From an uncultured Actinomycetes bacterium (GTDB lineage: Bacteria; Actinomycetota; Thermoleophilia; Gaiellales; Gaiellaceae), in assembly GCA_963838985.1 (NCBI GenBank), contig CAWITF010000004.1:76280-140279 (forward strand): a stretch of 64,000 nt of DNA, in the 5' to 3' direction. Below, piece by piece: positions 32,340-62,658 of this stretch (its first letter is position 1; every line of letters begins with the position of its first letter). The position numbers were made by a program, and so were the translations under genes. The notes below the pieces were generated by a model that saw nothing but the letters and a program-made list of their open reading frames with translations, had not been told where the DNA came from and did no database searches.

Positions 32340-33254
32340 GTGCCCGACGTCCTCGCGCCAGGGCTGCGCGTCGTCTTCGTGGGCATCAATCCCGGCCGCG
32401 TCTCGGCCGCGGCCGGCGCGCACTTCGCGAATCCGCGCAACGACTTCTGGCGGCTGCTGCACGCGGCACGCTTCACGTCGCGGCTCTACGAGCCGAGCGA
32501 GCAGTTCGAGCTGCCGAACGAGGGCATCGGCGTCACGAACGCCGCGTATCGGACGACGCCGGGCTCCGGCGACCTGCGGCGCGGCGACTTCGCCGGCTCG
32601 GCCGAGCGGCTCGAGCAGATCGCGCGCGAGCTGCAGCCGCGATGGCTCGCGTTCGTCGGCAAGGAGGCGTACCGCGGTGCGTTCCGGGAGCGGCCGGAGC
32701 TCGGCGTGCAGGAGCGCCGGCTCGGCGAGACGCAGCTCTTCGTGCTGCCGTCGACGTCACCCGCGAACGCGGCCGTGCCGTGGGACGAGCGGTTGCGCTG
32801 GTTCGCCGAGCTTGCCGGTCGCTCGGTCGGCCTGCCGTGGCGGCTCGGTGTTCGCGCGCTGCTCGTCGACAGTGCGAACCGAGTGCTCCTGATGCGCTAC
32901 GGCAACCAGTACTCGACCTGGTGGGTCACTCCCGGCGGCGGCAAGAACCCCGAGGAGTCGGACGAGCAGGCGCTGCGACGCGAGCTGCGAGAGGAGACGG
33001 GGCTTCGCGACGTCGAGATCGGGCCGCTGCTCTGGAGCCGCGAGCAGTACTTCTGCGACGAGCCCGGGCACTGCGGCCAGCGGGAGAACGTCTACCTGGT
33101 CCGGGTCGACGCGTTCGAGCCGCAGCCGGAGCTCGACCTCGCGGCCGAGGGCTGCCACGAGCAGCGGTGGTTCACGCTCGACGAGCTCGACGGCCTGCCG
33201 ACGAGGCCGGAGGATCTCGCGACGAGGACAGCTAGCTTCGCCAGCGGTTGGTGA
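32340..33254 (+). CDS. Fusion protein: G/U mismatch-specific uracil-DNA glycosylase (Mug) domain plus a C-terminal NUDIX hydrolase domain
   Basis: ORF 32340..33254. The N-terminus [37 protein letters not shown] is Mug-like. The C-terminus carries the Nudix box [24 protein letters not shown]. Confidence 0.75.
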
Positions 33255-34947
33255 TCGGCGTCCGCCGGTCGCGGCCGAACGCCTTCGGCCGCAGCCGCAC
33301 GCCGGGCGGCGCCTGCCGGCGCTTGTACTCGGCGCGGTCGATCAGCGCACGGCGCGCTCGACGACGTCGGGGTCGAAGCCGTCGCTCGAGAGCTCCTCGA
33401 GCGTGCGGTCCTCTTCGACGTAGGCGACGAGCACCGGTCGAGCACCGGGTAGGGCGGCAGCGAGTCCTCGTCGAGCTGGTCGGCGCGAAGCTCGGCGCTC
33501 GGCGCGCGGTCGATGATCGTCTGCGGGATCAGCTCGCGCCCCGCGCGCTCGTTCAGGTGCTTCGAGAGCCGGAAGACGTCGGTCTTGAAGACGTCCTTCA
33601 GCAGCGCAAAGCCGCCTGCCATGTCGCCGTAGAGCGTCGCGTAGCCGACCGACATCTCCGACTTGTTGCCGGTCGCGACGAGCAGCCAGCCGAACTTGTT
33701 CGAGAGCGCCATCAGCAGCACGCCGCGGATGCGCGCCTGCAGGTTCTCCTCGGTCAGGTCGGGCTCGCGTCCTTCGAAGCTCGGCGCGAGCGCGCTGACG
33801 AAGCCCTCGACCATCGGCTCGATCGCGATCTCGCGGAAGTCGCAGCCGAGGTTCTCGGCGAGCCGCTGCGCGTCGCCGCGCGTTCCCTCCGACGAGTAGC
33901 GCGACGGCATCGAGACGCAGTGCACTCGCTCCGGCCCCAGCGCCTCGGCGGCGAGCGCGGCGACGAGCGCCGAGTCGATCCCGCCGGAGACGCCGACGAC
34001 GATCTCGCTGAAGCCGTTCTTGCGCACGTAGTCGCCGAGGCCGAGCTCCAGCGCGAGCCGCATCTGCTCGAGGTCGTCGCAGAACGGCGTCAGCGTCGGC
34101 TCGAGCGTGTCGTCGTGCGAGTGCGGAGCGCCGATGTGCACGACGTCGACCGCACCGAGCTCGCCGCGATCCTGCGCGAGCGCACGCCGGCGCGTGTCGG
34201 TGAGCCGGCGCGACACGACCGACGACGGGTCGATGTCGACGACGAGCAGCTCCTCCGCGAAGCCGCACGCGCGCGCGAGCACGGTGCCCTCGTCGTCGAT
34301 CACGAACGAGTGGCCGTCGAAGATCAGCTCGTCCTGGCCGCCGACCGTGTTGCAGAGCGCGACGAACGACGCGGTGTCGCGCGCGCGTGTGCGGAACATC
34401 TCCTCGCGCTCACGGTCGCGTAGCAAGTGGAACGGCGACGCGGAGATGTTGACGATCAGCTGCGCGCCGGCGAGCGCGAGATCGGTCGCGGGCGGGCCGG
34501 GCTGCCACATGTCCTCGCAGATCGGTCACGCCGACGAGCGTGTCGCCGTGCTCGAAGAGCGTGATGCCGTCGCCCGGCGCGAAGTAGCGGAACTCGTCGA
34601 AGACGCCGTAGTTCGGGAGGAAGCGCTTCTTGACGAACGCCTTCACCTCGCCGCCCGCGCAGACCGCGGCCGCGTTGAAGAGATCGCCGCTCGAAGTGCG
34701 GCGTGCCGACGACCGCGACGATCCCGCGCGCCTCGCGCGCGATCCGCTCGAGCGACGCTTCGGCGGCTCGTACGAAGCCCGGCCTCAGCAAGAGATCCTC
34801 CGGCGGATAGCCGGTCACGGCGAGCTCCGGGAAGAGCGCGATGTCGGCGCCGGCCGCCTTCGCCTCGCCGAGCCGCTCGAGGATGAGCGCGCGATTGCCG
34901 TCGAGATCGCCGACGACGGGGTTGATCTGCGCAAGTGCGATGCGCAT
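33232..34947 (-). pseudogene. nadE: Glutamine-dependent NAD+ synthetase (nitrilase domain plus NAD synthase domain); about four frame breaks, near 34689, 34523, 33436 and 33343
   Basis: Four pieces join: ORF 34456..34947 (MRIALAQINPVVGDLDGN...FPELAVTGYPPEDL), ORF 34410..34646 (KAFVKKRFLPNYGVFDEFRYF), ORF 33092..34510 (ICEDMWQPGP via own reading; VGVSGGIDSALVA; GNKSEMSVGYATLYGD) and ORF 33342..34268 tail ([30 protein letters not shown]). A last segment is from my own translation ([37 protein letters not shown], stop 33234..33232). Confidence 0.8.
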
Positions 34948-34955
34948 CGCTATTC

Positions 34956-36831
34956 CTAGAGTACGCGGCTGATCGCGTCGAGCGATTCAGGGTTCTCGAG
35001 CGACGAGAGGTCGCCCGGATCCTTGCCGAGCACGCGGGCGCGCACGGCGCGGCGGACGATCTTCGCGCTGCGCGTCTTCGGCAGCGCGTCGACCCAGAGG
35101 ATCCGCTCGGGCTTGAACGCCTTCCCGAGCACGTCGGTCACGGCCGAGGCCACCCGCTCGTCCTTCTGCTTCTCGCCTGGCTTCGGGACGCAGAAGATCC
35201 AGGCGACCTCCCCCTTGACCGCGTGCGGCACGCCGATCGCCGCCGCCTCGGCGACGATGCCGCTGCCGATCGCGGCGGACTCGAGCTCGGCCGGCCCGAT
35301 CCGCTTGCCGGCGATGTTCAGCGTGTCGTCGCTCCGGCCGTGCAGGAACCAGTAGCCGTCCTCGTCGATCGACGCCCAGTCGCCGTGCGTCCACACGCCG
35401 GGGAAGCGGCGCCAGTACGTCTCGAGGTAGCGCTCGTCGTCCCCCCAGATCCCGCGCGTCATCCCGGGCCACGGGCTGCGGCAGACGAGCTCGCCGACCT
35501 GCTTGCGGACCGGCCGGCCGAGCTGGTCGACGACGTCCATGTCCATCCCGAGGGCGGGGAAGCCGAGCGCGACCGGCTTGATCGGCTCGGTGATCACCGT
35601 CGTCAGGAAGCACGCGCCGACCTCGGTGCCGCCGCTCACGTTCACGATCGGCGTCGTCGAGCCGCCGACCTCGTCGAAGAGCCAGCGGTACGGGTCGGGG
35701 TTCCACGGCTCGCCGGTCGTGCAGAACGCCTTCAGCGAGGAGAGGTCCTGCGTCGGTGCGCCGTGCGGGATCAGCGCGCGCACGAGTGTGGGCGAGAGGC
35801 CGAGCATCGTCACGCGCTCCGACTCGACGAGCGACCACAAGCGGTCTTCGGGCCAGTCGGGCGCGCCCTCGGCGAAGACGATCGTCGCGCCGGCGGCGCC
35901 TGCCGCCGACGACCGTCCACGGGCCCATGATCCAGCCCATGTCCGTTGCGAAGTGAACCCGGTCTCCGGGCTTCACGTCGGCCTGGTAGACGGCCTCGCG
36001 CACGATCGAGACGAGGAAGCCCGCGGTGACGAGGTTCGCGCCTTTCGGGCGACCGGTCGTCCCCGACGTGTACGCGAGCAGATACGGCGCCTCGGAGTCG
36101 ACCTCGACCGGGGCGAGCGTGCCCGGCTGCCGTGTCACGAGCTCCGGCCATTCGCGCTCGTCCCGCCGCCACACGATCACGTGCTCGAGCGCATGCGGGC
36201 CCGCCTCGGTGAGCGTCTCTGCCATCTCGATCCGCTTTCCGCGCCGCAGTGACCAGTCGGCGCAGATCGCGACCTTCGCCTGCGAGTCCTCGAGCCGCGA
36301 CGCGATCGCAGGCCCCGCGAAGCCGGAGAAGATCGGCACGTGGATCGCGCCGACGTGCGCGCACGCGTGCGCGGCGATCGCCACGGCCGGCGACATCGGC
36401 ATGTAGATCGCGACGCGGTCGCCTTCGACGACCCCGAGCTCGACGAGCGCCTCGGCGAGCTGCGTCACCTGGCGCGATGCCTCCGCGTAGGTGAGCGACT
36501 CGCGTGCTCCGTCCTCGTAGCGGCCGACGAGCGCCTCGTCGCCGGGGCGCTCGGCCGCGAAGCGGTGCAGGCAGACGCGTGCGACGTTCACCCGGCCGCC
36601 GTTGAACCATGTCGTCCACTCCGGGCCGCGCGAGTCGTCGAGGACAGACGTCCACGGCTGCGAGAACTCGATCCCGAGGTCGTCGACGAGCTCGCCCCAG
36701 AAGCGGGCCGGCTCGCGCACCGACAGCGCGTGCAGCTCGGCGTAGTCGGCGACCTCGAAGCGGTGCAGCAGGCGCGTGACGTTCGCCCGGTCGGCCTGCT
36801 CGGGCGTGGGCTGCCAGATGAAGTCGCTCAC
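34956..36831 (-). pseudogene. AMP-dependent acyl-CoA synthetase/ligase (acetoacetyl- or acetyl-CoA synthetase-like); frame break near 35900
   Basis: ORF 34987..36831 (…LLAYTSGTTGRPKG…DMGWIMGPWTVVGG) continues in ORF 34956..35840 (…NVSGGTEVG…SDDTLNIAGKRIGPAELE…LPKTRSAKIVRR). Confidence 0.8.
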
Positions 36832-36850
36832 GTTGCGGAACCCTAGTGCG

Positions 36851-36895
36851 GTCAGCTAACCTAGCGACCACTAACTTAGTGGACACTAACCAGGA
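36851..36895. repeat. Three tandem 15-nt units, each centred on CTAAC, in the divergent ligase/MFS promoter. The middle one sits in a 15-nt palindrome, CCACTAA C TTAGTGG.
   Basis: The units are GTCAGCTAACCTAGC, GACCACTAACTTAGT and GGACACTAACCAGGA. CTAAC occurs at 36856, 36871 and 36886, exactly 15 nt apart. Confidence 0.6.
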
Positions 36896-36901
36896 GCTCG
36901 G

Positions 36902-38347
36902 ATGAAAGCACGGCATTCTCGCCGAGGAGAATCGCAAGTGGTGGACGCTCATGGCCGTCGTCGTTCGGCCTGTTCATGATCATGCTCGACAACACGGTCG
37001 TGAACGTCGCGCTGCCGACGATGGAGAAGGACCTGCACATGTCGATCTCGCGTCGCTCGAGTGGGTCGTCGTCGCCTACGCGCTGACGTTCGCGTCGCTC
37101 ATGATCACCGGCGGCAAGCTCGCGCGACATGTTCGGCCGCGAGAAGATCTTCATCGGTCGGGCTCGCGATCTTCACGCTCGCCTCGCTCGCCTGCGGGCT
37201 CGCCCGACGATCGGCTTCCTGATCGCCGCGCGCGCGGTGCAGGGCGTCGGCGCGGCGCTGATGAACCCGGCGACGCTCTCGATCATCGTGGCGACGTTCC
37301 CGCCGAAGCAGCGCGGCCAGGCGATCGGGATCTGGGCCGGCGTCTCGGCGCTCGCGCTCGCGATCGGCCCGCTCATCGGCGGCCTGATCGCGCAGCAACA
37401 TCAACTGGAACTGGATCTTCTTCATCAACGTCCCGATCGGCGCGCTCGGCATCGTCGTCTCGCAGCTCGTGATCCGCGAGTCGCGCGACACCTCGCACGA
37501 GCAGAGCATCGACCTGCCGGGCCTGCTCACCTCCGGATCGGCTTCCTGCTTCGCGCTGAGCTACGCGCTGATCGAGGGGAACGCGCACGGCTGGGGCTCC
37601 GCCGAGATCCTCGGCCTCTTCGGGCGTCGCGTCGTCTTGCTCGGCGGCGCTTCGTCGTGCTCGAGGCTCCGGCAGCGCCTGCCGATGCTCGACCTCTCGC
37701 TCTTCCGGATCGGCGCGTTCGCCGGCGCGAACATCGTCGCGATGCTCGTCTCGCTCGCGATGTTCGGCGTCTTCTTCTTCGTCTCGCTCTACGTCCAGAA
37801 CATCCTCGGGTACTCGCCGACGAAGGCGGGCGCGATCTTCCTGCCGATGACGGTGCTGATCATCCTCATCGCGCCGCTCGCGGGGCGGTTCTCCGACCGC
37901 GTCGGCTCGCGCTGGCTGATGGGCGCCGGGATGACGCTGCTCGGCATCTCGCTCCTGCTCTACCAGCGGGTCGGCCTGCACTCGAACTTCTGGACGCTGC
38001 TGCCGGCGCTGCTCCTCGGCGGCGTCGGGATGGCGATGACGATGTCGCCGATGACCTCGGCCGCGATGGGCGCGGTGCCGGTCGACAAGGCCGGCGTCGG
38101 CTCGGGCGTCCTCAACAGCTTCCGCCAGGTCGGCGGCTCGCTCGGGATCGCGCGTGATGGGCGCGATCCTCGCGTCGTACGCGCATCCACGCGCCGAAGC
38201 ACGCTCGCCGCGCAGCAGGACTACGTCAACGGCCTGCACGCCGCGCTCGCCGTGAGCGCCGCGATCAGCTTCGGCGCGGCGATCGTCGGCGATCGTGCTC
38301 GTGCGGACGACGGCCGCAGGTCGAGCGGGCGCACGTGGCGGAGGTGA
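36902..38347 (+). pseudogene. MFS drug:H+ antiporter (DHA2/EmrB-QacA type), broken by at least 8 single-base frame changes as given
   Basis: Recognisable segments alternate between all three + frames: NRKWWTLMAVVV / LFMIMLDNTVVNVALPTM (own reading), LEWVVVAYALTFASLMITGGKLA (ORF 36951), MFGREKIFIG and PTIGFLIAARAVQGVGAALMNPATLSIIVATFPPKQRGQAIGIWAG (ORF 37129), and NVPIGALGIV...PMLDLSLFRIGAFAGANIV...GVLNSFRQVGGSLGIA (ORF 37469). Confidence 0.75.
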
Positions 38348-38377
38348 CCGCGTGAGCACGACCGCCGTCGACCGCGC

Positions 38378-38961
38378 ATGGCGGCCGCCGGCGGCGGCGC
38401 GCATCTGCTCGAGACGGCCGCGCGCGTCTTCTCCGACGGCAGCTACCGCGGCACGACGACGGCCGAGATCGCGCGGGCGGCCGGCATCTCCGAGCCGATC
38501 ATCTACCGCCACTTCGCGTCGAAGCGCGACCTCTATCTCGCGGCGCTCGAGCACGTCTGGGAGAAGGCGCGCGCGGGCTGGGAGCAGGCGGTCGGCCGAC
38601 CGACCGACGTCTGCGCCGCGGTCGAGACGATCGGCAAGGGACACGTCACCGTGCGCTCGGCGCAAGCTCCAGCTCGCCGAGCTCTGGGTGCAGGCGCTCG
38701 CGCGAGGCGTCGGAGGATCCGGAGCTGCGCAAGGCAGCTGCGCGGCACATGCGCGAGGTGCACGACTTCGTCGCCGGCCTGATCCGCGACGGCCAGGCGG
38801 AGGGCGTCGATCGTCGCCGAGCGCGACGCCGACGCCGAAGCGTGGATCATGCTCGCGGGCGGCGATCCTCGGCATGGTCGGCCGCCGGATCGGCCTGCTC
38901 GACGACACCGAAGCTCAACCGACGATCCGCCAAGCTCGCCTGGCACTGGCTGACTGCCTGA
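38378..38961 (+). pseudogene. TetR/AcrR-family transcriptional regulator, with several frame breaks
   Basis: ORF 38378..38782 (LLETAARVFSDGSYRGTTTAEIARAAGISEPIIYRHFASKRDLYLAAL) has the TetR HTH. The C-terminal half is spread over ORFs 38295..39152 and 38749..38961 (MREVHDFVAGLIRDGQAEGV...). Confidence 0.7.
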
Positions 38962-39154
38962 GGCGCGTCTGCGCGCCAGGCACCTCCGCGTGCCGGCCCC
39001 GCTTGTCGCCTCGTAAAGGCTCTTTGACGAGCCGCGATCGCGTCGGCGGCGGCCAGACCCCGCTGCTGGCCGCAGCGCACCGCCAGGTGCGCGTCGACCG
39101 ACACGCGCCGCCCTCCCGCGGCGAGCAAAGCGAAGCGGTCGCCCAGCGCTAAAT

Positions 39155-39189
39155 AAAGAGGCCCCGGCTGCGGCTCCGGGGGCCTCTTT
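39155..39189. terminator. Strong bidirectional-looking terminator, AAAGAGGCCCCGG ... CCGGGGGCCTCTTT
   Basis: GC-rich stem flanked by an A-run upstream and a T-run downstream, read directly from the sequence. Confidence 0.7.
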
Positions 39190-39498
39190 CAGAGGGCGCT
39201 ACCGTTCCGTGGCGGCTTCGGAAGCCGGGTCTGCGGCGTCCAGCCGCGCCTCCTGCCCTGCCGCCGGAAGTCTGGCGCGCCCCCTGCAAACCTTCGCCTG
39301 GCGTCCGGCCTGGGCTGCAAGGTGGCCTGACTATAGGCGCGATGTCCTGTAGCAGTCAAGTGGCTCGGTCAAGTGATTCTGCAGCGCGCTACTTCACTGA
39401 AATCCCATGGGTATCCCTGAAAACATGCCCCTTTAGGGGGAGGCTCGAAGAGCCACCTTGCGTTTGGTGAAGCATGCGGTTTCACTTCTAAGCCGCAG

Positions 39499-40861
39499 AT
39501 GACGACCCAAGACACCGCCTTCAACGCCAGCCGCACCGCCGCCCCGAGCGGGCTGCGTCTCGGCGAGCGGCTGCGCCAGCTCCGTGTCGGCCGCCGGGCT
39601 CACGCAGAGCGACCTCGCGGGCGAGCGCTTCTCGAAGGAGTACGTCTCCCAGATCGAGCGCGGCAAGACGCGGCCGACGCGCGAGACGATCGAGTGGCTC
39701 GCGGCGCGGCTCGGCGTCGACGCCGGCTTCCTCGCGAACGGCGTCGCGACCGACGAGCGCGGCCGCCTCGAGGGCGCGCTCGCGCGGGCCGAGGCGCTGA
39801 TCGAGGCCGCGCGACGACGCCGACGCGGCGAACGAGTTCGAGCCGCTCGTCCCGCGGCGCGCGCGACGGGCGTGCCCGAGCTCGAGGTGCGCGCGCTCGT
39901 CGGCGCCGGCCGCACGAAGATGCGCCTCGGCGAGCTCCGCGCAGGCGCTCGAGCTCCTGAACGAGGCGCGGGCGCTCGTCGAGGCGGGATCCTTCTCCGA
40001 TCGTCGAGCGCGCCGAGGTCTTCTCCGCGCTCGGCGGCTGCCGCTACCAGCTGAACAGCGCGCAGTCCGCGATCGCCCTGCTTCGAACGAGGCGCTCGCG
40101 CTCGCCGAGCGCTCCGGCCTGCCGTGCGACGCGCTCAAGGCCGAACATCTTCTCGTGGCGCTCGCGCTGCTGGCGCCGCCAGCGCGACTACGAGGCCGCG
40201 CGCGACGACATCGAGCGCGCGCTCGAGCTCGCGCGAGGACGCGAACGACCCCCGCACGATCGGCGCCGCGTACTTCCAGGCGTCGCTCGTCGCCGACCGC
40301 GAAGGGCACTGGGTGCTCGCGCGCAGCGTACGCCGAGAGCGCGCGCGACGGCGTACGAGGAGCTCGCCGACCGCGTGCACGTCGGCGAGCTGACGAACAA
40401 CCTCGGCGGCCTCAACTTCCTGCTCGGCAAGACGGACGAGGCGATCGCGCCTGCTCAAGGAGGCGTTCGCGCATCGCGCTCGAGACGGGCCGCGACGCCG
40501 ACGCCGCGCAGGCGGTCTCGTCGCTCGCCCAGATCCACCTCCGCACCGGCGACTCGATGCAGGCCGAGGAGCAGGCGCGGCACGCGCTCCGGCTGCTCGA
40601 CGGCCGCGTCAGACTACGTCGACGAGATCGGGAACGCACAGCTCGTGCTCGGCCGCGCGTTGCTCGAGCAGGATCGCCTCGACGAGGCCGAGGCGGCGTT
40701 CGCCGACGCCGAGGTGAGCTTCGGCCAGCTCGGCTCCGGCCAGCCACCGCGCCGCAGCCTGGGTCGCCCGAGGCGATCTCGCCGCGCGGCGCGGCGACGA
40801 CAGGCTTGCAGCACACCTCTACCGCACTGCGGCTGAGGCGCTCCAGGACGTCAGGTTCTAG
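39499..40861 (+). pseudogene. XRE-family HTH plus TPR-repeat regulator (paralog of 59112..60431), broken by many frame changes (at least 8) as given
   Basis: The HTH is split over ORF 39499 (LGERLRQLRV) and ORF 39584 (AAGLTQSDLAGERFSKEYVSQIERGKTRPTRETIEWLAARLGVDAGFL). TPR-like segments appear in ORFs 40124, 40155 and 40375 (ALETGRDADAAQAVSSLAQIHLRTGDSMQAEEQARHALRLLDG; DYVDEIGNAQLVLGRALLEQDRLDEAEAAFADAEVSFGQLG). By my own reading it ends ALQDVRF at TAG 40859..40861. Confidence 0.7.
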
Positions 40862-40882
40862 CGGTCGGAAAGGAGGCTCGAC

Positions 40883-41002
40883 GTGACCAAGGCACGGCTC
40901 TACTCCCTGATCATCTCCGCGCTGCCTCTCGCGCTCTGTTTCGCGAAGTTCGCCCCGGCGCTGCTCCATCCGGGCGGCATGAACGACGGCGGCTACTGGT
41001 AG
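40883..41002 (+). CDS. 39-codon hydrophobic peptide ORF immediately downstream of the XRE-TPR regulator
   Basis: Own translation: VTKARLYSLIISALPLALCFAKFAPALLHPGGMNDGGYW. GTG at 40883, preceded by GGAAAGGAGG at the right distance, and 21 nt after the regulator stop. Below the ORF-track size cutoff. Confidence 0.5.
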   Translation: MTKARLYSLIISALPLALCFAKFAPALLHPGGMNDGGYW

Positions 41003-41145
41003 ACGGCGGATCGGTCTGAGGTGGTCGATTCGCCGCTGCGCGGCCCGGGTGCGGGCACGCGTGGCGGCGGTCGGACCGTCTGGTCGATCGATGCGGATGC
41101 GGCCGCGGCGTTTCCTCCGCGGCCAACGGGGTCATCCTGATCGAT

Positions 41146-42746
41146 GTGGGCGCACGGATAGAGCGTGCTCGGCGCGCGCTGTACGTCACCCGTGTCGCGC
41201 GGCGGAGCGGAATTCGGCGCGTCCTCGCGGAGATCGGCGTTCGCGGGCACCGCGACGCCACTCGCGAGGGCGCGCGCAACTTCCGTGAGGCGCTCGAAGA
41301 GCTCGGGACGACGTACATCAAGCTCGGGCAGCTGCTCTCGTCGCGGCCCGACCTGCTCCCGGATCAGTACATCGAGGAGCTCTCGCAGCTCGTCGACCAC
41401 GCGCCGCCCGTCCCGTTCGTCGACATCCAGGCGGTCGATCCTCGCCGATCTCGGGGACGACGTCTTCACGAGCATCGACCCGGAGCCGCTGGCCGCGGCG
41501 TCCGATTGCGCAGACGCACCGCGCGCTCCTGAAGAGCGGACGCGAGGTCGTCGTCAAGGTGCGGCGGCCCGGCGTCGTCGAGCAGGTCGAGCTCGACCTT
41601 TCCGTGCTCCGCTCGTCGGCGTCCTTCTTTGCGGGCAAGTCGGAGACTGCGCAGCTGCTCCAGATCGAGGCGCTCGCCGACGAGCTCGAGGTTCATCTGC
41701 GTCAGGAGCTCGACTTCGTCGAGGAGGCGTCGAACACCGAGCTGATCGCGAAGCTCGTCGCGGAGTACGAGCGCGTGCTCGTGCCGGAGGTGATCCGCCC
41801 GTACGTGACCGAGCGCGTGCTCGTGCTCGAGTACATCGAAGGCGAGAAGGTCGCCGAGGGCCATCCACTCGCTCCGGACATTGCGCGGGAGCTCGCGCGG
41901 GAGTTCTTCTCGGCCTACGTGCACCAGGTCGTCGTCGAGGGCGTCTACCACGCCGACCCGCACGCGGGGAACATCCTGTTGACGCCGGATGGACGGCTTG
42001 CGCTACTCGACTTCGGGCTGCTCGGCCGCCTCGACGACGACACGCGCCGCGGCCTCTCGCTGCTACTGCTCGCGATCGCGCAGAACCGCGCCGACGATGT
42101 CGCCGATCTCATCCTCTCGCTCTCGCTCACGGGTGTGAAGTCGGATCAGCCGGCGTTCGTGCACGACGTGCGCCGCAAGCTGCCGCGCTTCCACTGGCGC
42201 CCGCTCTCCGGCATCCGCGCGGGCGAGTCGCTCGCCGACCTGCAGCGGATCGCGCTCGAGCATCAGATCGCGCTGCCGACGAGCTTCGCCCTGGTCGGCA
42301 AGACGCTCGCGCAGGCGGATGCGATTGCCCGCGTCCTCGACCCGGAGCTCGACCCGATCGCGCTGATGGAGGAGGAGGCACTCGAGGTGATGGCGATCGA
42401 GGCTGAGCGCCGGCTCGAGCCGAACCGGCTCTTCGCGTATCTCTACACGCAGCTCGACCCGCTGACGCGCATGCCGCGACGAGTCGCGCACGTCCTGAAC
42501 GAGCTCGAGCAGGGCTCGCTGAAGTTCGGCATCGTCCCGACCGGCCTCGAAGAGCTCGAGGCAAACCTCCGCTCGATCGCGAACCGCGTCGGCGCTGCGA
42601 TCATCGTCGGCGCGCTGCTGCTCTCCTCGTCGATCATCGTCCGCGTCCACCGCTTCGAGTGGGTCGGGATCGCCGGCTTCGCACTCGCCGGTGTGCTCGG
42701 CCTCTACATGGTCTGGAAGATCATCCGCACGCCCGGCGAGCTCTGA
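41146..42746 (+). pseudogene. ABC1/UbiB-family atypical kinase with C-terminal TM helices; frame breaks near 41437 and 41505
   Basis: Three pieces join: ORF 41146..41532 (ALEELGTTYIKLGQLLSSRPDLLPDQYIEELSQLVDHAPPVPF), ORF 41165 (ILADLGDDVFTSIDPEPLAAAS) and ORF 41559..42746 (VVKVRRPGV via own reading; EVHLRQELDFVEEASN; YHADPHAGNILL...LALLDFG). Confidence 0.8.
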
Positions 42747-58254: not shown

Positions 58255-59115
58255 TTACGCGGCGCGCGGCGTCGCGACCGGCAAAAGGCCGCGTGCGTAC
58301 CCCGCGAGCATGTACATGCTCGCGAGCCCTGCCCACTCGCCGTACGGCTCGAGCAGCTCTGCCGTCTCCCAGCCTTCGACGGGACGGCCGCGCATCGCGC
58401 GAAGCAGCTTGACGAGCCCGAGGTCGCCGACGAGCCCGAAGTCGTAGCGCCCGAGCCCTTCGAGGCACACGACGCCGACCGACCACGGCCCGAGCCCGCG
58501 CTCGCGATCGAGGCGCGCGACGACCGCGTCGGTCGGCACGTCGTGAAGCCGCTCGAGCTCGATCGTCCTGCACATGCGGACGAGCGACGCCGCACGCCGG
58601 GTGTGCAAGCCGAGCGCGCGAAGCTGCGACGGGGCGAGTGCGGCGAGGTCGCGCGTTGTCGGCGAGACGTGCAGGCGCTCGCCGCCCGGCGTGCAGGTCG
58701 TGCGGATGATCTTCTGCTCCAGGCGCCGCGCGCGCTTCGCCTCGATCAACTGGCCGCAGTACGCGCGGAGCAGCGCCTGCGCGACCGTCGGCAGCCGGAT
58801 CGGCCGCAGGCCGCGGAGCGCGCGCGACGCCGGGCCGAGCATCGGGTCTTTGCGCACCCGCCGCAGGAAGTCGGAGTGGTCGTCGTCGAGCGCGAGGATC
58901 CAGCGCAGCTTCGCCGCGCCGGCCTCCGACTCGGTGCGCAGCTCGACCGTGCCGTCCGGCGCTTGCCACGCCCGTGCGAGCTCGACCTCGTCGCCGATCG
59001 CGAGCACGCACGTGAAGAGCCCGTCGCGAAACGTCCGCGTCGCGTCGCTCGAGAGCCGGGCGGAGAAGGCGAGCGAGAAGGGACCGCGAGGCTTGACCGC
59101 GAGCGCGAAGCTCAA
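58255..59115 (-). CDS. HhH-GPD DNA glycosylase (AlkA-like 3-methyladenine glycosylase II)
   Basis: ORF 58255..59256 with TTG 59115 proposed as the start, overlapping the upstream stop as TTGA. Contains GLGPWSVGVVCLEGLGRYDFGLVGDLGL. Confidence 0.7.
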   Translation of the reverse strand: MSFALAVKPRGPFSLAFSARLSSDATRTFRDGLFTCVLAIGDEVELARAWQAPDGTVELRTESEAGAAKLRWILALDDDHSDFLRRVRKDPMLGPASRALRGLRPIRLPTVAQALLRAYCGQLIEAKRARRLEQKIIRTTCTPGGERLHVSPTTRDLAALAPSQLRALGLHTRRAASLVRMCRTIELERLHDVPTDAVVARLDRERGLGPWSVGVVCLEGLGRYDFGLVGDLGLVKLLRAMRGRPVEGWETAELLEPYGEWAGLASMYMLAGYARGLLPVATPRAA

Positions 59116-60431
59116 CGGTCGGCGCGCGCGGTCTCGGGGACTGCCCGCATCCCGAGATCGGCGGCGCGGTCGAGCACGTCGAGTGCCTCGGACTCGCGAC
59201 CCGCGTCGCGGAGGAGCTTCGCCCATGCGCGCGCGGCCGTCGTCGCCTGGCGCCACCGCGCCAGCTCTTCGAGAATGCCCACCGCCTCAGCGTAGGCGCC
59301 GAGGGCGACGTCGACGTCTCCCTTGAGCGCATTGCCTTCGGCGAGGGCCACGAGCGCGAGCCCGCGGTCGTACGGCGAGTCGTCGGTCAGCTCGAGCGCT
59401 GAGCGGGCGAGCTCGACGGCGCGATCACCCCGGCCGAGGAGCGCCGCGACGCGTGCACGCTGCATCGTGATGTCGAACCGCTCCTGTTTCGGCACGGCGG
59501 GACCGAGCAGCCGTTCCGCCTTCTGCAGGTGCGCCTCGGCTGCATCCGGCTCTTCGCGCGAGACAGTGATGTACGCGGCGAGGATGTGCGCGCGTGCGAG
59601 GTGGAAGGTGTCGTCGGTCGCCTGCAGCAGTGCGATCGCCTTGCGCACGTTCGTGAGCGCAACCGCTTCGCGTCCTTCTGTGTGGGCGAGTCGCGCCATC
59701 GACCAGTAGAGGCGGACGCGCATGTACGGGTCTGCGCTCTCCTCCATCCGGTCGAGCAGGCGCTGCACGACCTCTTCGGCTCGCGCGATCTCGCCCATGT
59801 CGCTGAGCGCGTAGCTCAACATCGTTCCGTAGCGCGCTTCGAGCGTCGCGTCGTCATCGAGCTCGTCCAGGCAGCGCTCGAGGAGCGCGACCGCTTCGTG
59901 CGTGCGACCCGCCGAGGAGTACGCGTGCGCGAGCTCGCCGTAGATGTCTGCGAGCGCGACCGGGTCGAATGTCTCACCGTCGAGCGCGCGCTCGAACTGC
60001 TTGACCGCCTCCGAGTAGGCGCCCCGCTCCTGCTCGATCGCCGCGAGCGCGACCCGTGCGCGCCGCGCCGAGACGCGGTCGCCGGCCGTGTCGGCATCGA
60101 CGACGAGCTCGCGCAACGCAGCTTCGGCATCGCCCGCGTCGCCGCCCAGGCGGATCGACAGCTCGAGGTCGGCGAGCCGGAGCTCCCGTGCCGAGTCTGG
60201 ATCGATCGAGGAGCCGGTCTCGAGGTAGTCGGTCGTGACGCCGAGCTTCGCCGCGAGGCGGCGCAGCGCTTTCACCGACGGCTGCCGCGTCCCTGCCTCG
60301 ATGCGGGAGATGTAGGCGTACGAGACTCCGGGAGCAGCAAGCTCACGCTGAGAGAACCCTCTCTCCAGCCGCAGGCGCTTGAGCCGCTCCCCGATCGTCT
60401 CGCCCGCGGCTGGCGATGCTTCGGGTTGCAC
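59112..60431 (-). CDS. XRE-family HTH plus TPR-repeat regulator; intact
   Basis: ORF 59112..60557 with GTG 60431 proposed as the start: IGERLKRLRLERGFSQRELAAPGVSYAYISRIEAGTRQPSVKALRRLAAKLGV (HTH_3-like), followed by about 370 aa of helical repeats rich in A/L/E/R, with TPR-like spacing. Confidence 0.75.
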   Translation of the reverse strand: MQPEASPAAGETIGERLKRLRLERGFSQRELAAPGVSYAYISRIEAGTRQPSVKALRRLAAKLGVTTDYLETGSSIDPDSARELRLADLELSIRLGGDAGDAEAALRELVVDADTAGDRVSARRARVALAAIEQERGAYSEAVKQFERALDGETFDPVALADIYGELAHAYSSAGRTHEAVALLERCLDELDDDATLEARYGTMLSYALSDMGEIARAEEVVQRLLDRMEESADPYMRVRLYWSMARLAHTEGREAVALTNVRKAIALLQATDDTFHLARAHILAAYITVSREEPDAAEAHLQKAERLLGPAVPKQERFDITMQRARVAALLGRGDRAVELARSALELTDDSPYDRGLALVALAEGNALKGDVDVALGAYAEAVGILEELARWRQATTAARAWAKLLRDAGRESEALDVLDRAADLGMRAVPETARADR

Positions 60432-60517: not shown

Positions 60518-60539
60518 GAGTCCCTCGACCGAGGGACTC
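60518..60539 (+). promoter_or_regulatory. 9-bp perfect hairpin (GAGTCCCTC GACC GAGGGACTC) in the leader of the small peptide ORF
   Basis: Read directly from the sequence. It ends about 6 nt before the AAGGGAGGGG Shine-Dalgarno. Confidence 0.5.
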
Positions 60540-60556: not shown

Positions 60557-60652
60557 ATGCTCCGCACCACGTACGTCCGCGTCGTCCTGATCATCGCCGT
60601 CCTCGCAGCCCTCGGGCTCATGCTCGGCGGCGAGCCCTGGGGCCCGCGGTAG
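60557..60652 (+). CDS. 31-codon hydrophobic peptide ORF, divergent from the XRE-TPR regulator
   Basis: Own translation: MLRTTYVRVVLIIAVLAALGLMLGGEPWGPR. Strong SD (AAGGGAGGGG) 4 nt upstream, and its own terminator 13 nt downstream. Below the ORF-track cutoff. Confidence 0.55.
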   Translation: MLRTTYVRVVLIIAVLAALGLMLGGEPWGPR

Positions 60653-60692: not shown

Positions 60693-60706
60693 TGTACCCT
60701 CGGCGC

Positions 60707-62183
60707 GTGCCGATCGTTGAGCTCGCTCTCTATGCGCTGCTCCTGGTCGCGGCCGGCACGCTGATCTGGCGCCGCCCGCTCGCCGCCCTCTACGTCTTCG
60801 TCTCCGGGCTCGCGGTGCACAACGCCGTGATGGCGGCGCTCTATGCGGCCGGGGTCCGGGGCTCGACGTTGACGGCGATCACTGCGTGGAAGGAGATCCT
60901 GCTCACCGTCGCGCTCGTCCGTGTCGGCACCGACGCCGCACGCGCGAGGCGGCTTCCGTTCGATCCCGGTGTCGCGGACGTCCTTGCGCTCGCCTTCGCC
61001 GCGCTGACAGTTCTGTACGCGCTGATTCCGCAGTCGGCGCTCGACGGCGCCGCCGGTCACAAGGCAGTCGCGCTCGCACTGCGCCACGACGTCGTGCCCG
61101 TCGGGGCGTACTTCCTCGGCCGTTCGCTCCTCGTCACGCGTGTAGACCTGCGCCGGCTGGCCGTGACGCTGCTCGGCGTCGCGGCGGTCGTCGCCGGAGT
61201 CGGCCTCGTCGACGTCTACGCCGTTTCGATCTCGTGGTGGCGGACGAACGGCGTCATCGACTACTTCCACCGCCACCTCGGCTACGACTACCACGGCACC
61301 GGCGTGCGCACCGAGGCGCACGGCGCGGTCTATGGGCTGCCGGAGAACTTCATCTACAACGTCGGCGGCAACAAGCCGTTCCTGCGCCGGCTCGTGTCGA
61401 CGTTCCTCAGCCCGCTTGCGAGCGGGTATCTCTTCGTCGTCGCGCTGCTCATCGCGACGACGACGCTGCGCCGCCGGCCGGTTGCTCGCCGCCGGCGCGG
61501 TCGCCAGCGCTGGTCTCCTCTGGACGTTCTCGCGGTCGTCGCTCGTCGCGCTTGCCGCCGGGCTCGTCGTGCTCGCGTTCACGCGCCGCGTGCCGAAGGC
61601 TCTTGCTGCCGCCGCGGCTGTGGTCGTGCTCGCGGTCGCCTGGGCGCATCTCTTCCCGAAGCTCGCGCCGACCGGGACCTTCACGAAGGTCGATGTCACG
61701 TACCAGCAGTCGCTCGCGAAGGGGCACAGCGGTGTGAGCTATTCGGCGGTGAACGCGAGCGAGCCGTCGCTGCACTCGCACTGGGCGAGCCTGAAGGACG
61801 GCGCGCGCACGATGGTCGATCATCCGCAGGGCTACGGCCTCGGCAATGTCGGGCAGACGGCGTCGCGCACCGGGACGCCGTTGAAGGCGGGCGAGTCGAA
61901 CTACACGGAGCTCGGCGTCGAGCTCGGCGTGCTCGGCGCGCTCCTCTGGATCGCATGGAACCTCGCGGTGCTCGTCGGCCTCGTGCGCGCTGGTCGCGCA
62001 GATGCGTGGGCGGCCAGCGTCGCGGCTGCGTTCGCCGCGGTGCTCGCGCTCGCGGTGCAGACGGACGTGATCGGCGACCCATGGGTCGCGTATTGCGTGT
62101 GGGGTCTCGGCGGGGCATTGCTCCTGCGCACGCGTCCGCAAGAGCGTCTTGCGCGCGCGGATTCGCCGGCCGTAGCCTCGTAA
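60707..62183 (+). pseudogene. O-antigen ligase/polymerase-like (Wzy_C) polytopic membrane protein; frame break near 61475
   Basis: ORF 60707..62191 is credible to ...YLFVVALLIATTTL. It then continues in ORF 61332..62183 (...LLWTFSRSSLVALAAGLVVLAF...HSHWASLKDGARTMVDHPQGYGLGN...ESNYTELGVELGVLG). Confidence 0.7.
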
Positions 62184-62187
62184 CACC

Positions 62188-62658
62188 GTGACGACATACC
62201 GCGTCCTGCTCACGGCGGCGTTCGCGCTCGCCGTCGTTGCGCTCGCCTTCCACGTCGAGCAGCGTGCAGCCAAGCCGGCCGTCGTCGCAGACCCGGTGCG
62301 TACTCCCGGCGTGCTCAACCCGAACGTCACGCAGTCGAACATCGGCTCGACGATCTGCGTGACGGGCTGGACGCGCACCGTGCGTCCACCCACCGACTAC
62401 ACGAACGCGCTGAAGGTGAAGCAGCTGCGTGCGTACGGGCTGCGCGGGCCGCCGTCCGCGTATCAGGAGGATCACCTGATCAGCCTCGAGCTCGGCGGCG
62501 ATCCCACCGACCCGCGCAACTTGTGGCCCGAGCCGTATCCGCGTGCGGCCCAGGTCGACGTGATCGAGAACGAGCTGAACGCACAGGTGTGCAGCGGCGC
62601 GCTGACGCTCGTGGAAGCGCAGGAGCGCGAGTCCGCGCTCAAGCACAGCCGGGGATGA
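62188..62658 (+). CDS. Small secreted or membrane-anchored HNH/His-Me-finger-like nuclease-family protein
   Basis: ORF 62188..62658. N-terminal TM/signal segment, then TICVTGWTRTVRPP...YQEDHLISLELGGDPTDPRNLWPEP. Confidence 0.55.
   Translation: MTTYRVLLTAAFALAVVALAFHVEQRAAKPAVVADPVRTPGVLNPNVTQSNIGSTICVTGWTRTVRPPTDYTNALKVKQLRAYGLRGPPSAYQEDHLISLELGGDPTDPRNLWPEPYPRAAQVDVIENELNAQVCSGALTLVEAQERESALKHSRG

Follow-up and report, generated by a model that had tools for sequence, protein, structure and literature searches.

A candidate RRNPP-like receptor and pro-peptide cassette with an associated structured small RNA in Gaiellaceae (Actinomycetota)

NprR is a cytoplasmic regulator composed of an XRE-type helix-turn-helix (HTH) domain and approximately nine tetratricopeptide repeats (TPRs), with its pro-peptide gene located immediately downstream in the same orientation; this pro-peptide, NprX, is ~40 aa in length and carries an N-terminal export signal, its active part being situated towards the C-terminus. 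The peptides ComS and SHP possess a basic N-terminus, a hydrophobic body and an active part at the extreme C-terminus, which is often aromatic or Gly-rich, with comS located directly downstream of comR, and shp typically divergent from rgg and leading into the regulated operon. In the arbitrium system, the HTH-TPR receptor AimR is accompanied by an adjacent pro-peptide gene, aimP, and by a small non-coding RNA, AimX, as regulated output. Here, we describe a locus in a stretch of 64,000 nt (designated here as the window) of contig CAWITF010000004.1, derived from an uncultured member of the Gaiellaceae (Actinomycetota, Thermoleophilia). The locus encodes an XRE-HTH and TPR regulator (regulator 1), followed by a 39-codon open reading frame (ORF) for a small peptide (peptide 1) and preceded by a divergent candidate structured small RNA (sRNA). 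It may represent an RRNPP-like receptor and pro-peptide cassette outside the Firmicutes, with which an apparently new sRNA is associated and whose membership of any known RRNPP subfamily is not demonstrable.

Actinomycetota typically use small-molecule signals, peptide signals being a trait of Firmicutes (PMC10075063), and an evolutionary survey of RRNPPA systems makes no mention of Actinobacteria (PMC9765709). Full-text literature searches returned no report of an RRNPP or RRNPPA system in Actinobacteria or Streptomyces, or of quorum sensing in Gaiella, and descriptions of RRNPP-type logic are, in the literature searched, so far confined to Firmicutes and the mobile elements of these. Five computable criteria delimit the family in the tool RRNPP_detector, i.e. 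a pro-peptide of 10–100 aa, an export signal (Sec/SPI or SHP-type for PptAB), a receptor of 250–500 aa, the presence of TPRs, joined in the transcription-factor subfamilies by an XRE HTH, and adjacency of −60 to 400 bp (PMC10075063). Peptide 1 is 39 aa in length in the window and 31–51 aa in 76 relatives, regulator 1 consists of 448 aa (446–475 aa in its orthologs) with matches to the TPR_12, TPR_2 and TPR_16 as well as the HTH_31 and HTH_3 models, and the two genes are separated by 21 nt in the window and by 12–42 nt in 79 loci.

Regulator 1 and its linked peptide gene

Direct reading of the window placed the ATG start codon of regulator 1 at position 39499 and its TAG stop codon at 40859–40861, and confirmed the coordinates of the regulator and of the 39-codon ORF, together with the 21-nt gap, that had been given in a preliminary description of this DNA (Table 1). 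The regulator 1 frame is only continuous when followed through several frames to its TAG (the frameshifts are considered below), and the start codon lacks a recognisable Shine–Dalgarno (SD) sequence. Pfam searches with the stitched protein retrieved HTH_31 (E=2.5e-13) and TPR_12 (E=1.8e-23), along with HTH_3, TPR_2 and TPR_16, all of which passed the cut-off. The HTH domain encompasses approximately residues 20–79 and is followed by 17 helices (~8–9 TPR-like pairs), consistent with an AlphaFold2 model of ortholog P0015 (pLDDT 85.5), which is predicted to be all-helical, with five HTH helices and then 17 helices of the TPR type. More than 100 intact orthologs, exhibiting 80–85% identity, were retrieved, and those from a named source bear the label Gaiellaceae or the broader one Actinomycetia. 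The architecture of regulator 1 is that of an NprR- or PlcR-type receptor, homology to RRNPP receptors not being demonstrated by sequence or fold searches.

A scan of species-representative genomes yielded 80 loci encoding relatives of regulator 1 (64–89% identity), all from Gaiellaceae, Thermoleophilia or 'Actinomycetes' metagenome-assembled genomes (MAGs), and in 79 of these it was possible to determine where the regulator gene ends. A GGAGG-type SD sequence positioned 3–15 nt before a start codon, and a small ORF opening 12–42 nt past the regulator stop, were present at all 79 loci, i.e. the regulator–peptide synteny, a search for which in related genomes had been proposed in the preliminary description, was never absent. 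Peptide-side look-up of two rather divergent family members revealed the order MFS-TetR-gap-XRE_TPR-peptide on three further contigs. In the window, the regulator stop codon is followed by 5 nt, the SD sequence GGAAAGGAGG, 6 nt and the GTG at position 40883, from which VTKARLYSLIISALPLALCFAKFAPALLHPGGMNDGGYW is encoded up to the TAG at 41000–41002; the strong SD previously noted was thereby upheld, while its spacing to the GTG is six rather than five nucleotides. In the source assembly, a gene call (P0361) has exactly the peptide 1 sequence, and the 226,669-bp contig that carries it also carries the paralog P0121. The 39-codon ORF thus represents a true gene, always linked to regulator 1 among the loci examined.

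The peptide 1 start codons comprised 33 GTG, 26 TTG and 20 ATG codons, three quarters of the ORFs thus beginning with GTG or TTG despite a near-perfect SD sequence. Intact ORFs were observed at 76 loci. The remaining three, none of which was counted as a loss, were truncated (L012) or internally frameshifted (L057 and L070, both from long-read MAGs); these internal frameshifts are probably due to long-read errors, the N-terminal motif being retained in both and the C-terminal motif in L057. The members share a layout of MTKARL, ~19 hydrophobic residues, a linker of variable length in which indels are tolerated, and the motif G[MFL][SN]DGG[YFG][WF], with DGPR, WDGPL and FDGH as clade variants of the latter. 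In the window, these parts are represented by the n-region TKAR (+2), a hydrophobic core of ~16–19 aa and the tail KFAPALLHPGGMNDGGYW, and in L040 the ATG frame, read by eye, opens with MTDRRLMYLLLIA….

Coding status is evident in that the N- and C-terminal motifs remain in frame over a length range of 20 codons, and in the GC content at the three codon positions (0.60/0.47/0.84 for peptide ORF 1 and 0.77/0.48/0.90 for regulator 1, compared with a flat 0.52 in intergenic DNA). The ratio of non-synonymous to synonymous polymorphism (pN/pS) was highest in the hydrophobic core (0.80), compared with 0.56 in the N-terminus and 0.48 in the C-terminal motif. A profile search assigned 253 protein clusters to the family, all annotated as 'hypothetical protein' and none with a Pfam domain, and those with an organism name were labelled Gaiellaceae or Actinomycetota; the peptides themselves had no Pfam match at E≤0.1 and no NCBIfam match.

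Within the clade L030–L060 (regulators 72–75% identical), the hydrophobic core of peptide 1 was observed to end in a lipobox-like L-[AG]-C (e.g. YFLAC|FHH and FILGC|THG), which in this clade would point to cleavage by signal peptidase II and to a short lipidated peptide; elsewhere in the family, the window copy included, the Cys is not conserved. Furthermore, MAG CAVPQJ01 harbours two complete cassettes (L011 and L014, on contigs 4 and 5), the regulators of which are 83% identical to the query while their peptides differ (…FRPGGMSDGGFY and …KHGVGMNDGGYW, respectively), and within-genome duplication of the cassette therefore occurs.

Upstream of the cassette, the order acs (minus strand), MFS and TetR, followed by a gap of 340–560 nt, is syntenic, while the downstream side is variable, with SDR/AIR-synthase-like genes or, in the window, UbiB-rhodanese. 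No sign of a mobile element was observed around the cassette, which we take, on balance, to be a chromosomal, core and syntenic element, vertically inherited in Gaiellaceae.

Table 1. Position, strand and basis of assignment of the features in the window
Feature	Position	Strand	Basis
Candidate structured sRNA, ~170 nt, divergent from regulator 1	~39152..39323	−	Conserved block, covariation, covariance model
Sigma-70-type promoter-like site of the sRNA, TTGACT-18-TATAGT	39330..39359	−	Promoter scan, conservation
Direct repeat, two copies of GTCAAGTG, 13 nt start to start	39355..39375	+	Repeat search, conservation
Regulator 1 gene, XRE-HTH and TPR, 448 aa	39499..40861	+	Pfam, orthologs, AlphaFold2 model, frameshift map
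SD sequence GGAAAGGAGG of peptide ORF 1	40867..40876	+	Sequence; 6 nt before GTG
Pre-peptide ORF 1, 39 codons, GTG start	40883..41002	+	ORF list, homologs, GC3
Codons for GMNDGGYW, conserved C-terminal motif (candidate mature signalling peptide)	40976..40999	+	Alignment, pN/pS
Paralogous regulator 2 gene, XRE-HTH and TPR, 439 aa, intact	59112..60431	−	ORF, Pfam, alignment
Pre-peptide ORF 2, 31 codons, MLRTTYVRVVLIIAVLAALGLMLGGEPWGPR	60557..60652	+	Sequence; family …LG.[ED]PWGPx
Wzy_C (O-antigen-ligase-like) polytopic membrane protein gene, frameshifted here	60707..62183	+	tblastn, Pfam of ortholog

A second regulator–peptide pair and the divergent control region

A second XRE-HTH and TPR regulator (regulator 2) with its own small ORF is located elsewhere in the window. 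Regulator 2, for which 2386 homologs were detected, has Pfam matches similar to those of regulator 1 (HTH_3, HTH_31, TPR_12 and other TPR models), and the two proteins could be aligned across 285 aa, 28% of which are identical (E=3e-13). The alignment proposed in the preliminary description thus bore out the paralogy and the shared HTH and TPR-like C-terminal regions claimed there, and by sequence comparison the two regulators are distant paralogs with the same domain architecture.

Pair 2 was surveyed in 80 metagenomic loci (L083–L162), 68 of which included at least 330 nt of DNA upstream of the regulator. At each of these 68, a divergent ORF of ~31 codons ending in PWGP-x-stop was identified upstream of regulator 2, establishing the second peptide as a conserved family as well; its consensus is M[SL]R..LYV[RK]LVLL…LG.[ED]PWGPx, with a variable last residue, and the window copy ends in EPWGPR. 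At 17 of the 68 loci, the peptide 2 gene occurs in at least two tandem copies. The Wzy_C-like gene lies directly after the peptide 2 gene(s) in the same direction, a position conserved in relatives (70–82% identity at ~55 loci by tblastn), and its intact L089 ortholog (492 aa) matches PF04932 at 3.9e-10. Between the peptide 2 promoter region and the SD sequence, a perfect palindrome, GAGTCCCTCG-AC-CGAGGGACTC, was observed at 60518–60539 (+); it is kept in a subset only (17 of 68 loci by strict pattern) and could constitute an operator or an mRNA hairpin.

The arrangement of pair 2 does not conform to the regulator-then-peptide order that had been attributed to both pairs, as peptide 2 (plus strand) is divergent from, rather than downstream of, regulator 2 (minus strand). 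The shared layout of the peptides held for the basic N-terminus, the hydrophobic core and the short conserved tail; it did not hold for the Gly-Gly, which is conserved in family 1 (DGG) and not in family 2 (LG[NSTG][ED]PWGPx). Since two regulators of only 28% identity each possess their own similarly built peptide, functional coupling between peptide and HTH-TPR protein is favoured over accidental neighbourhood, and this represents the strongest argument for such coupling. Pair 2 would, slightly more plausibly than otherwise, be orthogonal to pair 1.

Export of the peptides was judged by home-made heuristics (charge, core length and small residues). Family 1 exhibits an n-region of five residues (+2), a median core of 19 residues (range 15–33) and a median tail of 12 residues with a net charge of ~0; the corresponding values for family 2 are nine residues (+2), 17 residues, and six residues with a net charge of ~−1. 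By the same heuristics, small residues at −3/−1 near the end of the core were present in 64 of 76 family 1 peptides. Because of the +2 charge of the N-terminal flank and the ~0 to −1 charge of the C-terminal flank, the positive-inside rule predicts an N-in/C-out orientation with an extracellular conserved tail. The unconstrained core, free linker length and tails of 6–12 residues would be expected of a leader from which a short C-terminal product is delivered, and known RRNPP pro-peptides likewise consist of a leader and a short C-terminal product (PMC10075063).

The region upstream of regulator 1 includes an almost invariant block, read on the minus strand from the promoter-like site to the terminator hairpin, that encodes the divergent candidate sRNA, whose structure, derived from 68 sequences, comprises 48 pairs in six helices (88.7% paired), with compensatory changes at 29 pairs. 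Its parts are a hairpin at the 5′ end with the loop GGACGCCAGG, a long-range helix enclosing a hairpin with a GCCGCAG loop, and a terminator hairpin (39181..39152), which also carries a GCCGCAG loop and is followed by a U-run; the three apical loops (one GGACGCCAGG and two GCCGCAG) are invariant. The covariation score was 0.275, compared with 0.149 in shuffles (none of 500 reaching the observed value) and at most 0.107 for slid partners, the latter control being somewhat favourable to the structure because this was obtained by voting over single-sequence minimum free energy folds. Many of the G-U pairs fit the minus strand only. The covariance model produced a single match in the 64-kb window (39142–39327, minus strand, 109.8 bits) and matched every family 1 locus tested, including loci outside the model-building set, and none of 20 family 2 loci. 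No Rfam family was matched by the whole window at the gathering threshold, or by the intergenic region at E≤10 beyond chance-level matches, and the ~170-nt sRNA is a candidate for a new RNA family.

The promoter scan identified one site for the sRNA, compared with 0.1 expected, and its −10 and −35 elements are conserved across loci. The first copy of the direct repeat GTCAAGTG overlaps this −35 element, and two GTCAAGT copies are present at 73 of 75 loci; the repeat is a candidate regulator-binding site or second −35 element. An operator search in both control regions retrieved conserved GTCAAG/TTGAC sequences that coincide with the −35 boxes of the divergent promoters, none being assignable as an operator. 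A conserved GC-rich palindrome or hairpin, ATGCCCyTTTwGGGGGA, was observed at 39425–39445 (+), in the interval separating the sRNA promoter from the regulator 1 start, and was flagged as terminator-like by a minus-strand scan. The heptamer GCCGCAG also occurs at 39491–39497 (+), directly before the regulator 1 ATG, with GCCGCA being found there in most relatives; it has the same sense as the two sRNA loops, making mutual pairing impossible, and a shared RNA-binding factor might recognise the heptamer in both the sRNA loops and the regulator 1 leader.

Proposed mechanism and alternative explanations

From these elements, we infer an RRNPP-like (NprR/ComR-type) peptide-receptor cassette, to which we assign a probability of roughly 55%. 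According to this model, the cytoplasmic 448-aa regulator, consisting of an XRE HTH and a TPR superhelix, would be co-transcribed with a pre-peptide of 35–40 aa, whose basic N-terminus and hydrophobic segment of ~19 residues would act as an export or leader signal inserted N-in/C-out. Proteolysis would then free a C-terminal piece bearing G[MFL][SN]DGG[aromatic] which, at sufficient concentration, would be re-imported and bind the TPR domain, thereby switching the activity of the regulator at the 340-nt divergent control region. This region would drive the regulator operon and, most plausibly, the divergent structured sRNA. In a broader and distinctly more tentative version, which we consider rather unlikely as a whole, Gaiellaceae would use secreted oligopeptides sensed by HTH-TPR receptors, with at least two orthogonal 'languages' per genome (…GMSDGGYW and …EPWGPx) and with the sRNA as direct output of the first receptor.

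If correct, the model would remove a phylum boundary, as the sensing of peptide signals by cytoplasmic TPR receptors is regarded as characteristic of Firmicutes. Every related genome examined contains the candidate cassette, and a second pair occurs in the genome of the window. The peptides are short and, as encoded, unmodified, and can hence be synthesised, while the boundaries of the receptor, the control region and the sRNA promoter are known at single-base resolution. Members of the Gaiellaceae abound in soils and are hardly cultivated, and a native signalling peptide could serve as a probe of their cultivation and physiology; in addition, the small ORFs, now annotated as 'hypothetical protein' or uncalled, become annotatable as a family.

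Several observations weigh against this model. A core of 19 residues might just as well serve as a stable transmembrane anchor; the whole-ORF pN/pS of peptide 1 is high (0.77), a value not decisive on its own; and the C-terminal core is rather uniform, with little sign of RRNPP-like pherotype diversification. In the window, no oligopeptide permease (opp), dedicated exporter or protease gene is located beside the cassette. Moreover, the whole acs-MFS-TetR-sRNA neighbourhood is syntenic, and the adjacency of the sRNA alone is therefore no proof of its regulation by regulator 1. As regards the receptor, homology to Rap, Rgg/ComR, NprR, PlcR, PrgX/TraA or AimR was not detected by PDB profile, Foldseek or NCBIfam searches. 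A profile search against PDB sequences matched ComR (E=3e-4) and PlcR (E=6e-3) over the HTH only, with RapJ at E=0.31 and NprR absent. When the model of the regulator 1 ortholog was compared with the PDB using Foldseek, the top matches were peptide-binding TPR superhelices (LGN/Pins and designed CTPRs), a point in favour of the proposed receptor, as are the matches to NprR (5dbk), pLS20 Rap (6t46), PlcR (3u3w) and RapJ (4gyo) at ranks 33–41 (E ~1e-6, TM scores 0.22–0.40), although generic TPR proteins, at ranks 1–32, precede the latter. No NCBIfam model reached its cut-off with either regulator, the sub-threshold matches being to generic TPR or HTH models only (HaaT, AfsR, NsdA and RamB-HTH), none of which was taken as membership.

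The integrity of regulator 1 bears directly on whether the cassette operates in this organism. At least eight frame changes had previously been noted and attributed either to a decayed paralog or to a badly sequenced stretch; the disruption is real in the sequence as given, and when the window DNA was aligned with ortholog P0001 in a frameshift-aware manner, the count rose to 14, i.e. 12 single extra bases and two single missing bases, with no homopolymers being hit. A truly decayed pseudogene, and hence an inactive cassette in this organism, would be in keeping with the density of these events (14 in 1.36 kb, compared with one to four in each of the adjoining NAD synthase, acetyl-CoA synthetase (Acs), MFS and TetR genes), but we regard decay as very improbable. 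Natural gene decay is deletion-biased, whereas 12 of the 14 events are 1-nt insertions; the corrected gene contains no in-frame stops and shares 384 of 448 residues (86%) with P0001, equal to the identity among intact orthologs (83–90%); essential-type flanking genes (NAD synthase and Acs) are frameshifted as well; and the neighbouring peptide ORF is intact and, together with its SD sequence, ~98% identical to the metagenomic relative L167, in which (at 89% DNA identity) the extra bases of positions 40450, 40472 and 40738 are absent. Because the pattern is insertion-dominated and without other sign of decay, the 14 frameshifts are very probably sequencing or assembly errors, so that of the two earlier options the badly sequenced stretch stood and the decayed paralog did not. 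Regulator 1 is probably functional in the organism. Across ~33200–42000 and 60700–62200 of the window, many single-base indels, chiefly insertions, were observed outside homopolymers, breaking the NAD synthase, Acs, MFS, TetR, regulator 1 (14 events), UbiB and Wzy_C-like genes, as would be typical of long-read sequence that has been poorly polished.

The main rival explanation of the small ORF is that its product is a stable single-pass membrane protein, which would tether or sequester the regulator via its tail or modulate a membrane protein in an AcrZ/MgtS-like manner. The core of family 1 is long enough to span a membrane, no obligatory signal-peptidase motif is found across the family, and the peptide 2 gene precedes a polytopic Wzy_C-like protein as potential partner. 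On the other hand, the predicted N-in/C-out orientation would place the tail outside, away from the cytoplasmic HTH protein, with only ~5 residues facing the cytoplasm. As constraint is lowest in the membrane segment (pN/pS 0.80, compared with 0.48 for the tail) and linker length is free, a leader is favoured over a helix-packing partner, and we consider a stable membrane protein a doubtful explanation. Less likely still is that the ORF encodes the precursor of a modified peptide (a ribosomally synthesised and post-translationally modified peptide (RiPP), bacteriocin-like peptide or lipopeptide) or a hydrophobic toxin, with the XRE-TPR protein regulating without sensing. Such a precursor would likewise be short and combine a leader with a core that is conserved and rich in Gly and aromatic residues, and the TPR region weakly matches the RiPP-associated HaaT model (sub-threshold, 46 bits compared with a cut-off of 1125). 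The lipobox-like L-[AG]-C with which the core ends in one clade points in the same direction, although the Cys is not conserved family-wide, as does the Wzy_C-family gene preceded by the peptide 2 genes, a family that includes protein O-glycosyltransferases. Nevertheless, no modification enzyme, dedicated ABC exporter or peptidase, or immunity gene was found beside pair 1 in any locus, its neighbours being of a housekeeping nature (acs, MFS, TetR, SDR, AIR-synthase-like and UbiB), and the locus is core and syntenic rather than island-like.

Comparison with described regulator–peptide systems

The preliminary description had likened both pairs to Rap-Phr, NprR-NprX and PlcR-PapR. For pair 1, the likeness extends to the domain architecture, the gene layout and four of the five computable RRNPP criteria (peptide size, receptor size, TPRs and adjacency), with heuristic support for the fifth, export, and stops short of placing the receptor in any RRNPP subfamily; for pair 2, the layout is divergent and rgg-shp-like instead of regulator-then-peptide. 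The cassette recalls NprR-NprX in its similar receptor size, its HTH-TPR order, its co-oriented downstream peptide gene and the Foldseek match to NprR 5dbk (E=1.2e-6). It differs in that no sequence relation beyond generic HTH_XRE and TPR was detected (TM scores of only 0.32–0.40), the host belongs to the Actinomycetota and not the Bacillota, the peptide tail carries an unrelated motif (GMSDGGYW), the locus includes a conserved divergent sRNA, and the cassette is core-chromosomal and syntenic.

Compared with the ComR-ComS and Rgg-SHP systems (cf. PMC7564271), peptide gene 1 lies downstream of its regulator, as does comS, whereas peptide gene 2 is divergent and leads into the Wzy_C gene in the manner of shp, and the HTH of ComR is the best RRNPP sequence match (E=3e-4). 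The receptors of these systems are smaller (~280–320 aa with ~5 TPR-like repeats, compared with 440–450 aa here), and ComS and SHP, at 17–24 aa, are shorter than the peptides of 31–51 aa described here, which possess a hydrophilic tail. Membership of the Rgg/SHP-ComR/ComS subfamily was rejected, given that regulator 1 consists of 448 aa and matched no Rgg or ComR domain model when scanned against Pfam and NCBIfam at E≤0.01.

An actinobacterial counterpart is provided by the WhiJ/BldB-type pairs of Streptomyces, in which an XRE-family regulator has an adjacent small gene. The partner in these pairs is, however, a soluble DUF397 protein of ~60–80 aa, while the peptides here are signal-peptide-like, and WhiJ-type proteins are without a long TPR domain; an XRE and DUF397 pair was rejected, as the small protein had no Pfam match at E≤0.1. 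A type II pair of an XRE antitoxin (~70–130 aa) and a known toxin was likewise rejected, regulator 1 being a 448-aa protein with TPRs and the small ORF belonging to no known family, and matches to HipB/Y4mF-type antitoxins covered the HTH only and were below the cut-off.

PlcR-PapR shares with pair 1 an HTH-TPR receptor and a pro-peptide gene just downstream, as well as the HTH match (E=6e-3) and the Foldseek match to 3u3w, while PlcR, at ~285–297 aa, is shorter, its sequence match covers the HTH only and the TM scores are 0.22–0.33. The mature PapR peptide is the C-terminal heptapeptide (PMC6568020).

The conserved tail of peptide 1 is likewise the proposed source of its mature product. The remaining parallel is with AimR-AimP-AimX, from which the locus differs in the lack of sequence similarity and in the position of the RNA, aimX being downstream of aimP on a phage and the sRNA described here being upstream, divergent and chromosomal, with its control by regulator 1 being putative. 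Both systems nonetheless consist of three parts, and the structured sRNA invariably adjoins the receptor gene; should the sRNA prove to be an output of regulator 1, the cassette would constitute a chromosomal three-part module analogous to AimR-AimP-AimX.

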